Of a stretch of DNA of 50,625 nucleotides, positions 1,418-7,400 are shown piece by piece; position 1 is the first letter of the stretch; each line of letters starts with the position of its first letter. The stretch is from Enterobacteria phage CP-1639: the sequence record AJ304858; one strand, given 5' to 3'. Position numbers: made by a program.

Positions 1418-4400
1418 TTATTGTGATCAAAAGCAACAAATTAGTAACATTTAACGTAGGGTATTAAGGCAAAGTGAGACAGGAAATGAATAACTAAAGC
1501 AACAGGTTAGGGGGAGTTAACATTAGAGAACAGATTATCTGGTCGATAAAAAACAGTAAATGGCTTCACTGCAAAATGACCGTTAGTAAACTAAACATAT
1601 TATCTGCCCCGTTTTATCGGGGCAGATATAACATTAAATTATAAATAGAGATAGTTCGGCGGTTCTCCTGTTTTCCCTAAAAGAAGAGCGCTACGCCCAG
1701 GAATATTGATATTTAGAGTTCCGCCTCTAAGCGTAAATACTTTACCAGGGGGGATAATTTTTCGGGTATTATTAATAATAATGTTAACGCTATTACTCCC
1801 CATGTTTTTGTATATTCCAGGTTGCAATTTGTTAGGCCAGGTACCTTCAACTTCTTCGTTTCCTTTATTTATTATAACTAGTCCATCATGAGGAGAGTGA
1901 TTAATGTTCACAGAATCCCCACGACTAAAGGCCAGAACGTTTTTAGTTGCAGATACACCCTCAAATGCGCTCCATATTCCTGCTTTATCTATATATAATG
2001 CGTGGAATTCATTGTAGAGCTGCTGATAGGTAGAGCAACCTTTATTAAGCTACGCCTCACCGCCGACACGCGTGGACCCATCATAATTTTTAATTTCAGT
2101 CGTTGATTTTAATACTTGGCCATCCCAGTAAACTAAAGGCCTGCTGAACGGCAGAGCGGCTATATATGCCATTGCTAATTGTTCATCTTGTTGATGGTTA
2201 AATAGAAAGTCATTGAAAAGATTACCATTGTTAGGAAAATCGTGGTTAATGTTAATCAATATCCGTCTTTCTGATGGGATACTTGAGATTGTGGAACCCG
2301 GTTTTGATGCAAGGGTTTGAAGATCTCCACCAAATGAAAAGGCTTTTATCGTTTTCATGAGCAATGAAAAATCAATGGCGCTTAAATCATCTCTTTCATA
2401 AAGCAGTGATGACATTTGTTGTTCATCCAACTGACAAGTTACCAGATATTCCATGTAATTCATAACGGCTTTTTTATGATATTTTGGGTTAAATAAGTTA
2501 GTATTGTGTAACCGCTCATTATAATTTTTAAGCGGTGGGGTTATTGATCTTTCTATTTGTTCATGTTTTGAGTGTTTTGCCGCATCATAACGTAAACCTC
2601 GTACGCCATATTTTCGCATTTCACGAACGTATTGATTTTGCAACATAATAACCTGGTCACTTTTGGGTGTTGTTTTAGGCATTCCATTTAAACGCTTTTC
2701 TTTTAATGCATGGAGGTTTTCCCATTCATCCTTAGAGATGCGCGCAGGGGTCGGCCCATTTGAGCTTCAGATAGGAACGTTTGAATTCCTTTCACAAAAT
2801 ACATCACATACTGAACGTGAACATTCCCACTTTGATCTTAAGGCCAAAAAGTATGCAGGACTAATGATTTTTAGGGATAGCTTGAGAGTATTACCTTATG
2901 GTCGAGTAGATAATGATTTCTTCCAGATAGAAGAAAGACGTTCATGGAATGCAGGGCGATATTATTGGTCTAATAGAAGGATTTTTGGTTATATTGGAAT
3001 TACTCAATCCAGTAATAAAGAGCTGAAAGATAAGTCGGGGAGAGAGGGATTCATAAGAAACCAGGCTGCAAGAGAACTGAAAACTATTATATCTAATTTG
3101 TTAACTGAACTTGCTGATAGATTTTTTGGTTCACGTTCTGATGACCGTAAAGAGCTTTTAGAACAAGTTAAGCGTGAAAAAGAGTTAAGAAAATCTGCTC
3201 AACAACAAGCTCGAAAATCAACACAAAAAAGTTTTTCAGAAGCTTTGAAGAATCAGACACCAGTTCTTGATGCTTCCTTGGAGGCTGTTAAAAGGCTGAA
3301 AACTAAGCTTGATAAAACTGATGGTTCGTTAGATTTAAACTATCTTAAAATTATAGACAGTGATCTTACAAACTTAGATGCGTTGCGCAGTGAAATTAAA
3401 ACGCCTATCAAACCTCCAAAACTTGGAATGTATGAAGAGAAATATAGAGACTACAGAGATAAATTTAATGAGTTCTCTGCGTATATTCTACAAATGAAGT
3501 TAGCAATTAATAAACTTGATTCTGAATTAAATAAACTTGAGCCTTCATTGTCAGCGAAAAATCACCTTGAAAAAAATCAAGGTATTATTAATTCTAAACT
3601 AACTAAGTTTAATAACACGATAGAGGAGAAGATACATTCTCTTTTAAAAAAATGGGCCGATGAAATAAAGGTTGATCGAAGTGATTATTATGCTAAAACT
3701 ATATCAGTTGTTGATTCAATAGATAATGATTCACAAATTGAAAATGTGTTTAATTTGCTCGATAGTTTATATGTTGAGTCAGTTGATACCCTAACTTTCA
3801 AATATCAATCAATAATAAAAGGTCTCGATAGATTATTTGAAGGTATAAACTTAGATTCAGCATTCTCATTATCTGAAGAAGAACGCTCATATTTTGAAGA
3901 AAAAGCTAAAAATTTAAACGCGCTTGCACAGTTAGGTATTAGTGTTGAGATAATATCTCATGAACTTGAAGAAATGGATTCTATGGTAACCAGAGGACTA
4001 AACTCTCTTCCTACTTCTGTAAAAGAACACCCTGGTTTTTCATTGGCGTTAAATGCTCACAGATCGCTTACTCAACAAATACGTTTCTTATCACCTTTGA
4101 AAATATCAGGTTATCAATCCAGGCAGAGAATAACTGGAAAAAATATCATGGATTATGTCCTGAAGTTCTTTGGGGAGCGTTTCGAACGGCAACGAATAAC
4201 TATTGAATTTAGTGAAGAGTTTAAGCAAATCGCAATAACAGATATACCATCAAGGATCTATCCTGTTTTTACTAATATTATCAACAATGCAATGTATTGG
4301 GTCAGTCTGTCAAATAATAGGCTCATAAAGATTGGTTTTGTGAATTCTTTGGTTATCATAGCAAATTCTGGTCCGGCAATTGATACCGATGATATCCCGC

Positions 4401-7400
4401 GACTATTTGAACTATTTTATAGCAAAAGAGCAAATGGACATGGGGTAGGTCTGTATCTATGTCGAGAAAACCTTGCTGTTGCACATCATAAAATATGGTA
4501 TTCAGAACCTGATGAAGGCGATAACTATTTAATAAAAGATGGCGCTAATTTTGTGATCCAGTTCAATGGAGTGGAGTTCTAATATGACAGTGGCAAATTA
4601 TAATTCTCTTGTCCAGAAAACTTTCTGCGAAAATGCAATTCGTTCCGTTGTCATGATTGATGACGATTTTCTGACGTATTCTGAATCAATCAGGGCGTTG
4701 AATAACGAAGTTGATTTAGACTACAACAAAATTGACTCATCTAAACGAGCCGCTACTCTTGAGAGCTTTTTTCAATCTAAAAATATGATTTGTGATGTTG
4801 ACAATGGTTCTGTTAATTTCGATGTGGATCGGATTAGAAAATCAGATCTTATTATTGTAGATTATCATCTTGATAATAATGCACCTGATAAAACACTTAA
4901 ACTATTACAAGATTTGAAAGACTCCGATCATTTAAATATGATTGTAATATATACTAGAGAGAATTTAGAAACGGTTTGGATGCAGATATCATCGACTCTC
5001 AAAGGTGCTCTGGATATCAACAGCTTGATCATTGACTACGATAATGAAGATGTCCAAAGTTATTGGGAAGACGTTGTATTACCGAACTTAAATGATAATG
5101 GTAATAAAGCTCTCACAAGAGATGAAACAATAGCCTATATTAAAGACAGTAAGCCTTGTAGAAGAATTAAAAGATTAATACATGATGATGCTGTGTTGGA
5201 GGATCAAAAGGATAAAAACTTCATTGCAAAAATGATTGCAGAATATGCTGTGTCTAGAAATGCAATTATTTCTAGCAACACATCTGGCAATGTCATTCGG
5301 GGTGATGAAAGCGGAGTAAAATGGATTCAATGTGGTAATATCTTTGTCTCCCTATTTCATAAGGTTCAAGATGATCATGAAAACGATGGAGATAGGATTT
5401 GGCAAACTCTCAATGATTCTCTCATTGAATGGAAACCATCTTATTATCAGTTAATAAAATCTGAAATTCAGAATGCAATCGAAGCTGAGGCTTTATCTTT
5501 TGTAAATCATTTGGCTAACGATCATTACGGTCAAGCTGCGTGGTTAAATGAGATATTAAAATCAGACTCGCCTGATATTAGATGTAGAAATATTGACTTT
5601 GTATTTGGTAATTTATCAGAAGAGCTTTATCAAAGACTTAAAAATAATAATACGCTGGATGAATTTATCAAAAGTGTTTTTGATAGCTATTCAAATGAAT
5701 ACGCTAACAGCGGAGTTGCTGCATTGCTCCAATATTGCTCTTCAAAAATGGATCTGCCATCAAATAATGATACTTATCACGAAATGTATCATGCTTTAAA
5801 TATGAATTTGTCTTCAAAGAATTTTGAAGATGGTCATATTTCTACTGGCACTATTTTCTTTGATACAGAGTCGAACAAATGGTATTTATGTGTATCTGCG
5901 GCATGTGATTTGGTTCCTACTCAGGGTAACGACCCTCACCATGTAAGATTAAGTCCGCACAGGCTCATTAAAGTTCTGGAGCTTTTTAACGCCAGTCAGA
6001 GTAAAGCATTGCCATTTGCTGAACATTCGAAATATATATATGTAATGCATAAAAATCAAAGAAAATATCTCTCTATTTTCGAAGGGGATAAAACGCTTCC
6101 TGTTGTTGATTATATGGTGGTGTTGAATCATGGAACAACAGTTGATGGCGAAGAAAAAAATATTATTTCTGCCGTGTTTTTAAGTAATATGGATGGCAAC
6201 GTGCAAAATGTTCCTGTCCGACTCAAACTTAAATCTCAACTGAGAACTGGTTATGCAGAAAGATATCAGGCTATAGCGTCTCAGTATAGCTCAAGGATTG
6301 GTGTGGATTATGTATCAATGATGCTACCATAATTATTATATTTTAGGCGTGGTGATTTTTTTTTCGCCATGCCTATTTTATATTTATCATCACAATGATG
6401 TTGTTTATTTTTGTTTAAGTCTTCTAAGCTTCATGCATTCTAATGAGAATAATAATAGAGTTGTGCTGTATATAAAGCCAGAGTTAGTTAATAACTTTAA
6501 ATTTAATGCTTCAGGATTTTCACTGAGAAAGTGAAAGGCATAAACTAAGTATACAGCTAAAGTAGCCGTTCCAATTGTTGGTCCAATATCGCCTTGATCA
6601 TGAGGTTCAAGGTTTACATTGAACTTGAAGATTAGCCATTCAAATCCCCAAGTAAAAAAAACAACTAATATCATGGCTGCGAATAATTTCGCGATGTTAT
6701 CTGCTGATGGATTCATCAGAACAGATTGTTTCTGAAAAAATTCACAAAGTGAGAGTCCGAAAAAAATAAAAAAAAGTGGTCTGGAACTAAATTTTTCAAA
6801 AACTTTGAATAGGGTTTCCATTTTCTTTACCTTCAGGATTATATTAGCTATTCTGATACTTAGGCTACCAGAGCATTTGATCTTTGAGCTTGAACGTAAT
6901 CACTCCACCATTGCATCAAACTCTGTCGCTCTATCAGATATTCTGCACGATTGTATGCTGCGATAATTTCATCTTTTTTCGAGTGGGCAAGCGCTGCCTC
7001 AAGAACTTCAGCTCTGAATTTACCAGACTCCTCTGCCGCTGTTCGTGCAATAGAACGCATACCGTGAGCTACAAGCTCGCCTCCGAACCCCATTCGGATG
7101 ATAGCTGCGTTGGCTGTTTGTTCATGCATATGATTAAGAGGCGCTTTTATGCTGGGGAAAACCCATTCTCTATGCCCACTTATTGATTTCATTAATTCAA
7201 GGATGCGCAAAGCTTCTTTACTCAAAGGAACTTTGTGAAGCTTTTTCATTTTCATGAAATCAGCAGGAATGTTCCAAATGCTGTTGGTTGTATCAATATC
7301 AGACCACCTTGCGCGAACGGCTTCACCCGGACGAACCCATGTCAACAATTGCCATTCAATTAGCATACGTGTTTCCAACCGGATTGACGCATTCGTCAAA

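Follow-up and report, generated by a model that had tools for sequence, protein, structure and literature searches.

Genes for soluble histidine-kinase-like proteins adjoining genes for receiver-like proteins were described in a 2021 comparative-genomics study (Bellieny-Rabelo, Pretorius & Moleleki, Genome Biol Evol; PMC8011034), from which the Pfam families PF19191 (HEF_HK) and PF19192 (Response_reg_2) were created. The two genes were linked in 91.6% among 644 regions, the kinases were soluble with a MORC-like HATPase_c_3 domain at the N-terminus in 83%, a C-terminal HATPase_c domain was present in 94% of family members, and C5 cytosine methylases, Vsr and other restriction-modification genes were enriched near the pair (PMC8011034). 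A regulatory role was proposed, E. coli members were among those studied, and the 34 of 222 family members without HATPase_c_3 were treated as an architectural 'group 2' (PMC8011034). Other described systems to be compared are Detocs (DtcA/DtcB/DtcC), which was tested experimentally (Rousset et al., 2023; bioRxiv 10.1101/2023.01.24.525353), and the MORC/paraMORC GHKL ATPases of restriction-modification systems (Iyer, Abhiman & Aravind, 2008; PMC2292703), for which a receiver partner is nowhere mentioned (PMC2292703). Here, a kinase gene and a receiver-effector gene were analysed in the 50,625-nt record AJ304858 of Enterobacteria phage CP-1639, referred to below, at its full length, as the window.

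An original prediction had presented these two genes as an unassigned, native two-gene cassette and a candidate working anti-phage module. Its two open reading frames (ORFs), kinase-like and receiver-like, were found as described, with Pfam matches to HEF_HK, HATPase_c and Response_reg_2 and with all of the quoted motifs present. The cassette is not undescribed: both proteins match the dedicated families PF19191 and PF19192, and the pair is a member of the HEF_HK/Response_reg_2 family, already described from sequence and named in RefSeq. Nor is it natively a two-gene unit. We are very confident that the cassette represents what survives at the right-hand end of an ssrA island: a truncated relic of a methylase–kinase–receiver triad, left over by a deletion from a three-gene operon that opens with a C5 DNA methyltransferase.

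This was established by comparison with an intact island of Salmonella enterica (GCA_013645755, locus L002), of which positions 11128–16213 align by blastn with 2743–7830 of the window at 98.98% identity in one ungapped-length block. The left part of the Salmonella island carries two tyrosine recombinases, a relaxase and several genes without assigned function. The triad follows (8782–14717), consisting of a C5 methylase of 395 aa (PADLOC MTase_II, E 1e-79; Pfam DNA_methylase, E 9e-59), a kinase of 988 aa whose start overlaps the methylase end, and a receiver protein of 582 aa encoded 1 nt downstream. At the right end, on the opposite strand, lie genes for a 138-aa protein and a 409-aa P4-type integrase with an Arm-DNA-bind_3 domain, and the integrase gene adjoins the tmRNA gene. 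The remnant in the window contains the truncated kinase gene, the receiver-effector gene, the 138-aa membrane-protein gene and a truncated integrase gene (Table 1). On its left, the deletion ends in a ygaQ pseudogene, which is fused to kinase codon 376, and the island homology starts at 2743. Between ygaQ and the kinase gene the window has no C5 methylase, and this absence is secondary. Along with the methylase and the ATPase, a deletion reaching from inside ygaQ to kinase codon 376 removed the remainder of the island, and IS1203 later clipped the integrase.

The kinase gene is truncated at its 5' end. Mechanical ORF calling gave 2663–4582 for gene 1 and 4566–6332 for gene 2, both on the + strand. 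Within the predicted interval of 2663–6332 the two reading frames are real, but 2663 is merely the first TTG past a stop, and homology to the gene family begins at 2743/2744. By BLASTP, residues 23–639 of the mechanical ORF correspond to residues 372–988 of a 988-aa homologue (P0003) at 98% identity, solidly from 28/377 onwards. The window kinase comprises residues 377–988, that is the 3' 62% of the 988-aa gene, and the first 376 residues are deleted; the ~400-aa N-terminal region that had been called unassignable is the middle of a longer protein. Homologues of 988 aa at 98% identity occur in Salmonella, Klebsiella and Serratia and have the MORC-like HATPase_c_3 domain at residues 28–137, which Pfam did not find in the window kinase. 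Because HATPase_c_3 is not obligatory for the Pfam families, the window kinase stays a HEF_HK family member, and the missing domain marks it as a truncated copy. At least in the window, in the Salmonella loci L006 and L007 and in locus L033, forms without HATPase_c_3 are due to truncation or to a mis-called start.

The full-length kinase of ~988 aa consists of an N-terminal MORC-like GHKL ATPase with a transducer-like region, a helical linker of ~270 aa and a C-terminal kinase core. What the truncated kinase keeps is the kinase core (DHp domain, HEF_HK, and HATPase_c), the long helical linker and a portion of the transducer-like region. A very strongly conserved stretch past the ATPase (GLMIFRDxLRVLPYGR...IEERR...GREG), at the position of the MORC/MutL/GyrB transducer, is retained in the window. 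The H-box-like motif ISHELEEMDSMV was located at 3953–3988, with the candidate phospho-accepting His (SHELEE) at codon 3959–3961, and the motifs NIINNAMYW and GHGVGLYLC at 4274–4300 and 4436–4462. The HATPase_c domain carries an N box, a G1 box (NSGP) and a G2 box (GHGVGL). As to whether the machinery CATALYTICALLY is plausible, the GHKL, H, N, G1 and G2 motifs are invariant in ten kinases down to 37% identity. The invariant N-terminal GHKL motifs are E32/N36/D39, D61xG63xG65 and G104–G109, and the invariant residues of the kinase core, in full-length numbering, are His782–Glu783, N887, N890, N891, G919, G941, G943 and G945. In HisKA kinases phosphatase activity has been linked to position His+4; here most members have Glu/Asp there instead of Thr/Asn, and PF19191 has no conserved Thr/Asn.

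Among solved structures the best relatives of the catalytic domain are sensor kinases, including ThkA (PDB 3a0r/3a0t, E 1e-7), which has the same unusual NSGP G1 box, and the catalytic domain also gives sub-threshold partial matches in NCBIfam to AtoS, DcuS, PhoR and others. Such matches would be expected of fragments of an ordinary metabolic or environmental two-component system, but this origin is effectively refuted: the NCBIfam matches are confined to the ATP-binding domain and lie far below the cut-offs (36 bits versus 646), the DHp domain and the receiver belong to the dedicated families PF19191 and PF19192, and the genes lie on an AT-rich, integrase-bearing island, with methylase linkage in their relatives. 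In contrast to classical two-component systems, the window pair has neither a membrane or PAS/GAF-type sensor nor a DNA-binding or other known regulatory output (Pfam, NCBIfam, hydropathy). Both proteins are soluble, as had been predicted: no transmembrane segment was found in either, and the 19-residue Kyte–Doolittle mean does not exceed 1.38 in gene 1 or 0.96 in gene 2.

The receiver-effector gene is complete in the window. With the PGAP start its ATG (4584) lies 1 nt past the TAA of gene 1 (4580–4582), as had been noted, and the N-terminus of the protein matches Pfam Response_reg_2 (PF19192) with E 3.7e-31. The receiver features originally pointed out, namely a DDD pocket, an Asp in IIVDYHLD and a Thr in IYTRE, correspond to Asp26/Asp27, Asp93 and Thr124. 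None of these residues, nor Lys260, varies among 34 homologues with identities as low as 23%; Asp93 is the predicted phospho-acceptor. The residues needed for His-to-Asp phosphotransfer are thus conserved in both proteins.

For the rest of gene 2, in which no recognisable domain and no DNA-binding output had been claimed, searches of Pfam, NCBIfam, PADLOC and PDB sequences likewise gave no match, and a search of the PDB with a profile from the family alignment returned nothing. The predicted structure of residues 286–582 shows a helical region followed by a beta-rich domain (pLDDT 83). Foldseek comparison of the output-domain model with the PDB gave no hit at E<=1e-3, with TM <= 0.2. The model weakly resembles the CcdB/MazF/Kid toxin fold at a sequence identity of 6–10%, with no support from Foldseek, Pfam or PDB profile searches; this likeness may serve as a lead and is not an assignment. 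Conserved residues of the output region are His403, Asn406, Gly422, Thr423, Cys436, Cys441, Asp442, Pro445 and Arg460 and, in its C-terminal part, Gln552, Arg554, Tyr557, Arg560, Arg571, Gly573 and Asp575; the polar ones would suit an activity directed at nucleic acid or phosphate. A profile of the output region matched 645 clusters among 1.84 billion representatives. Among the 150 matches listed, all full-length proteins have the output domain after a receiver-length N-terminus, and because it always stands in this position no shuffling of the output domain was seen.

The conservation of this region bears on the role of the pair. The authors of the 2021 study (PMC8011034) proposed regulation, and the kinase and receiver might tune, in activity or in expression, the methylase beside them or other restriction-modification genes, or act in nucleotide-level signalling. 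The tight methylase linkage and the Vsr or HTH controller-like gene at some loci would agree with this. We nevertheless consider it rather unlikely: the output of the receiver protein contains neither a DNA-binding domain nor any other known regulatory one, this region of ~300 aa shows the same degree of conservation as the receiver and never stands apart from it, there is no separate conserved restriction enzyme to control, the usual phosphatase residue of the kinase is mostly missing, and a two-protein apparatus of ~1,570 aa would be a heavy cost for the control of one methylase.

The distribution of the triad was surveyed in one genome per species from 100,044 species, which yielded 38 loci; five loci found earlier were added. 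ORFs were searched with hidden Markov models built here for the methylase, both kinase halves and the receiver protein. Full context was available for 33 of the 38 survey loci, and in 31 of these a C5 methylase stands beside the pair (26 upstream and co-directional, four downstream and convergent, one at a distance of 3 kb). The methylase is also downstream and convergent at L010, one of the five extra loci. Where it is absent, the locus ends at a contig edge and has Vsr (L047), or the kinase lacks its first 132 residues including all ATP-binding motifs (L033); in the latter, methylase and sensor were lost together a second time, independently of the window and parallel to it. Vsr (6), TnsE_C (2) and HNH_2 (2) were found by Pfam among the 72 nearest flanking ORFs, Vsr being the only recurrent family, and these ORFs gave no conserved separate nuclease in or beside the triad. 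No third receiver gene was found in the window or in the 38 related loci. The hosts come from at least five phyla and include Gamma-, Alpha- and Betaproteobacteria, Desulfobacterota, Myxococcota, Acidobacteriota and Gemmatimonadota, and the intact triad occurs, among others, in Salmonella, Klebsiella, Serratia, Acinetobacter and rhizobia. Among the carriers are the mobilisable ssrA island, which has a relaxase, and Tn7-like elements.

Several loci are of interest individually. In Acinetobacter (L010, 1–3836; L018, 2647–5812) the triad lies directly downstream of Tn7-like transposition genes, as transposon cargo; these are TnsC, TnsD/TniQ and TnsE in L010 and two ORFs of matching size in L018. 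In L010 a small HTH gene adjoins the convergent methylase, like the controller protein of restriction-modification systems. The kinase is split by a ~1.1-kb insertion in Methylobacter tundripaludum (L042, 4774–8987), and the receiver gene is in two pieces in an Alteromonas sp. (L028, 8759–10662). Neighbours of the defence-island type include a KAP-family NTPase (L033, 2454–4757, - strand), a NACHT/pentapeptide-repeat protein (L047, 696–3623, + strand) and a protein with HNH_2 and ScoMcrA-SBD, of the type IV restriction kind (L006, 9730–10647, + strand). A plasmid collection gave two weak matches and a phage collection one, in Escherichia phage phi467 (L051, LN997803.1, 28761–38594). There, an island remnant lies at the record end, with the truncated kinase labelled SasA, the intA gene labelled CP4-57 integrase and the receiver gene and the 138-aa gene between them; it is no evidence of phage carriage, because the prophage borders were probably set too wide. 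A Firmicutes metagenome-assembled genome labelled Sporosarcina psychrophila (L013, DYWT01000267.1) includes a contig of 7.5 kb that encodes a receiver protein 100% identical to that of E. coli and almost certainly represents E. coli contamination or mis-binning.

Within E. coli, the remnant was found in 574 of 5,426 complete genomes (~10%), always on the chromosome and in 561 of the 574 at >=99% identity, while the deleted segment with the methylase and the kinase 5' end was found in none of the 5,426. Every E. coli copy of this variant has the same truncation. It follows that the truncation is old and has been inherited. In an O103:H2 lineage that has been sequenced many times, the receiver gene is cut by an insertion sequence (IS) at codon 453; the database cluster of this shortened product has 1,605 sequences, that of the full-length protein 1,966. 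In one such copy (L012, NZ_AP038980.1) an additional IS3 pseudogene lies where ygaQ meets the kinase gene (1808–2970), the IS inside the receiver gene is at 6246–7459 and the integrase is intact at 409 aa; compared with the window, this copy indicates that decay took different routes among Shiga toxin-producing E. coli lineages.

Selection was tested by polarizing synonymous and non-synonymous changes by lineage against the Salmonella copy, with L006 as outgroup. The two genes hold 19 differences, which leaves the test without power; the synonymous/non-synonymous counts were 1/3 for the kinase and 3/1 for the receiver, too few to tell drift from selection. Kinase calls of 572 aa also exist in Salmonella, Klebsiella, Pectobacterium, Yersinia, Morganella and Shigella (P0079–P0088). 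Those checked, at the Salmonella loci L006 and L007, are mis-called starts inside intact ORFs of 994–999 aa; in L006 (GCA_009468465) the intact 999-aa ORF spans 3984–6983 and is called only from an internal Met at 5265. These two calls look as if a wrong start had been carried over in annotation from the truncated protein of E. coli, which is abundant. A genuine short 572-aa architecture was rejected at the two retrieved Salmonella loci, where the call lies inside an intact 999-aa ORF.

It might still be argued that the E. coli pair as it stands is a working two-gene defence or abortive-infection module, in which the sensor-less core phosphorylates the receiver constitutively or on phage infection. 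Both ORFs are intact at the high identity given above, the active sites of kinase core and receiver are complete, a weak promoter-like site (2620–2649) precedes gene 1 and a terminator-like hairpin follows gene 2, and the 34 family members without HATPase_c_3 (PMC8011034) could be taken as its parallels. Against these points, the gene starts inside a conserved domain at the deletion junction, the promoter scan gave no excess of sites (17 versus 20.7 in shuffled sequence), the short forms checked elsewhere are annotation errors, the receiver gene is disrupted in a major O103:H2 lineage, and recent common descent alone predicts high identity. We regard a working pair as very unlikely. The window copy is unlikely to be a working defence module because the sensor ATPase and the methylase are both missing; it is probably an inert relic. 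That cells tolerate a copy of the window type fits an effector that is harmless without its sensor module.

For the intact triad, a methylation-linked module that serves defence or addiction and signals by His–Asp phosphotransfer is the probable reading. In the scheme that we propose, the methylase would mark self (host) DNA, and the MORC-like ATPase would be the sensor, engaging DNA by analogy with MORC/MutL/GyrB clamps. Foreign or unmodified DNA would bring about an ATPase state that is passed through the long helical linker and leads to autophosphorylation of His782. The phosphoryl group would be transferred from His782 to Asp93 of the receiver protein, and the C-terminal output domain would then be released against a nucleic-acid-related target, so that the invader is restricted or the cell arrested. 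A one-way trigger rather than a homeostatic regulator would fit, because the Thr/Asn phosphatase residue at His+4 is mostly missing. On balance we favour a defence or addiction module over a regulator, and put forward this specific sensor-to-effector scheme only tentatively. The explanation as a whole, a remnant of the triad together with the methylation-linked phosphorelay mechanism of the intact triad, is in our judgement slightly better than an even bet.

The co-loss of methylase and sensor in the window and in L033 would be expected if an intact sensor without methylation were harmful. The same observation would agree with a mainly selfish addiction module, in which a kinase–receiver toxin is set off once the methylase is lost or methylation is diluted, and so stabilizes the mobile element. 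Carriage on integrative mobilisable islands and Tn7-like transposons points in this direction, as does the weak CcdB/MazF-like fold, both of these being addiction toxins. Addiction is, however, compatible with defence, classical restriction-modification systems doing both, the toxin-fold evidence is weak, and strict addiction is made less likely by Magnetospirillum sulfuroxidans (L050, 4885–6078), where the methylase has an in-frame stop and the kinase and receiver are intact. Mainly selfish addiction is held to be improbable.

Four observations weigh against this explanation. Both remnant ORFs are intact in most E. coli carriers, and with the substitution counts too few to tell drift from selection, some residual function may persist. 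The methylase lies directly upstream of the kinase, and its loss together with the kinase 5' end may reflect adjacency only. The methylase stop of L050 is a counter-example to an obligatory methylase, unless the stop is due to a sequencing error or the site is modified by a different methylase. Finally, no report of phage protection, phosphotransfer or toxicity was found in the literature for any family member.

Known defence systems did not account for the pair. In PADLOC both window proteins, the full-length kinase, the 138-aa protein and an ORF upstream were without a match, the methylase alone being matched; with release 2.0.0 the window and the full-length kinase gave no hit at E<=0.01, the presence of Detocs profiles in this release not having been verified. 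The eight-gene methylation-associated defence system MADS and WonAB were each rejected as identity since they lack this kinase/receiver pair, and a HATPase + REC system predicted by DefensePredictor could not be linked to the HEF_HK/Response_reg_2 family.

The window itself is a piece of E. coli O111 chromosome, 100% identical to strain RM9322, and spans glaH/csiD, the small AT-rich island remnant, a Stx1a prophage, and ssrA (46842–47204) with smpB. The AT-rich cargo beside a decayed P4-type integrase was correctly recognized at the outset: G+C is 33.9% over both genes and 36.0% over 2743–7830, with flanks at ~52%, and the integrase matches Phage_int_M and Phage_integrase with its N-terminus missing. 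The window thus has the P4/CP4-57-type integrase, the AT-rich cargo and the ssrA gene of an island of this kind, the integrase now being separated from ssrA by the Stx1a prophage and IS1203 copies. About 86 N-terminal codons of the integrase were removed by IS1203, and the homology block stops at 7830; the integrase is intact (409 aa) in the Salmonella and O103 copies. The hairpin past the receiver gene has a stem of 12 pairs, six of them G–C, and a T-rich tail, and is likely to be the operon end. The 138-aa gene sits between the receiver gene and the integrase in islands of E. coli and several Salmonella, occurring in L002–L007 and in the O103 copy, and was not found in the distant triad loci L009–L011; Pfam and PADLOC searches of its product gave no match. 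Because it is kept in enterobacterial islands only, it is probably outside the core system.

Table 1. Coordinates of the island remnant, its genes and domains, and its borders in the window.
Feature	Position	Strand	Details
ygaQ-like alpha-amylase pseudogene	1639..2739	-	PGAP; without N-terminus, internal stop; abuts truncated kinase gene
ssrA-integrated genomic island remnant, 5,088 bp	2743..7830	.	blastn against Salmonella island L002
5'-truncated MORC-like GHKL ATPase/histidine-kinase fusion gene	2864..4582	+	BLASTP, PGAP; RefSeq/PGAP 'ATP-binding protein', 572 aa, WP_001426837
DHp/H-box domain (Pfam HEF_HK PF19191)	3929..4105	+	ORF residues 423-481, 26.0 bits (cut-off 24.1)
HATPase_c catalytic ATP-binding domain (PF02518)	4247..4522	+	ORF residues 529-620, E 2.3e-11, 44.6 bits (cut-off 26.4)
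Receiver-effector gene, 582 aa	4584..6332	+	Receiver-like domain with large helical insertion, helical region, beta-rich C-terminal domain (predicted); RefSeq/PGAP 'response regulator receiver domain', WP_000214990
Receiver active-site residues (predicted)	4653..5363	+	Asp26/Asp27 (MIDDDF, 4653-4670), Asp93 (4860-4862), Thr124 (IYTRE, 4947-4961), Lys260 (5361-5363)
Output region, residues 286-582	5439..6329	+	Conserved-residue alignment
Terminator-like hairpin, 12 nt past receiver gene stop	6344..6375	+	Consensus scan, pattern match only
138-aa hydrophobic protein gene	6405..6821	-	Highest Kyte-Doolittle mean 2.06
P4-type tyrosine integrase remnant	6860..7828	-	Pfam Phage_int_M + Phage_integrase; PGAP 'missing N-terminus'
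IS1203 (IS3 family)	7832..9142	+	PGAP; truncates integrase, right boundary of remnant

Further IS1203 copies were found by self-blast, a full one at 31745–33055 (- strand), within the prophage tail gene gpU, and a partial one of 892 bp at 11616–12507 (- strand). The latter is fused to a truncated Rad52-like recombinase gene, whose ORF (11045–11686) opens with IS-derived residues. The stx1A/stx1B genes (21146–22372, + strand) lie between the island remnant and ssrA, and the A subunit ORF matches Pfam RIP with E 6e-38.

For the window, the outcome corrects the original reading: instead of a new two-gene system, the cassette is a decayed member of a family already described. The short kinase has also spread in annotation, intact Salmonella genes of 994–999 aa being called as 572 aa in the records checked. 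The family merits testing, as it is missing from PADLOC, is carried on islands and Tn7-like transposons, has a C5 methylase as its neighbour almost everywhere, and combines the lack of a recognisable nuclease with an output without known fold. The intact ancestor may possibly stand for a class of immune or addiction system in which the logic of restriction-modification is run by a phosphorelay instead of a restriction enzyme. Equally tentatively, in that class a MORC-like, DNA-engaging ATPase would be wired through a kinase core and His–Asp phosphotransfer to an effector with a fold absent among solved structures, and the C5 methylase would supply the 'self' mark. If this is true, the E. coli relic would be a natural sensor-less and methylase-less allele with an effector harmless without its sensor; the truncated allele offers a ready-made natural control.

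Compared with known systems, the window pair shares with other HEF_HK/Response_reg_2 pairs the DHp and receiver profiles, the soluble kinase and the gene adjacency. C5 methylase and Vsr linkage and the usual N-terminal HATPase_c_3 are features of this family, and the window copy differs by the deletion of the N-terminal ATPase and the methylase. Whereas the 2021 study (PMC8011034) proposed a regulatory role, it is argued here that the receiver protein acts as effector through its C-terminal region and that three genes, the triad, make up what is conserved. Among type II restriction-modification systems, those with a C5 methylase and Vsr are alike in the C5 methyltransferase, the occasional Vsr, the occasional HTH controller-like gene and the mobile carriage; they differ in that the triad has two large signalling-type proteins in place of a recognisable endonuclease, and the window copy also lacks the methylase. 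The paraMORCs share an N-terminal GHKL ATPase with invariant ATP-binding motifs, a transducer-like region, DNA methylase linkage and a sporadic mobile distribution, but those described have helicase/nuclease partners or a C-terminal nuclease or TIR domain, whereas here a C-terminal histidine-kinase core and a receiver-effector partner are found.

The suggested likeness to Detocs applies to the logic, not to membership. Both have a cytoplasmic sensor kinase, His-to-Asp transfer (predicted for the triad), a receiver fused to a non-transcriptional output (in the triad a candidate effector), and mobile or defence contexts. The Detocs sensor consists of TPR repeats, while that of the full-length kinase here is a MORC-like GHKL ATPase. 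Detocs has a stand-alone 'buffer' receiver, DtcB, which has no counterpart here, and the third gene of the triad is instead a DNA methyltransferase. The DtcC effector is PNP in 80% and otherwise REase, TOPRIM or TM, none of which is matched by the output domain described here. If the triad is a defence system, it would be, after Detocs, the second known case in which immunity makes use of two-component phosphotransfer, and the first with a MORC-like ATPase tied to a kinase output.

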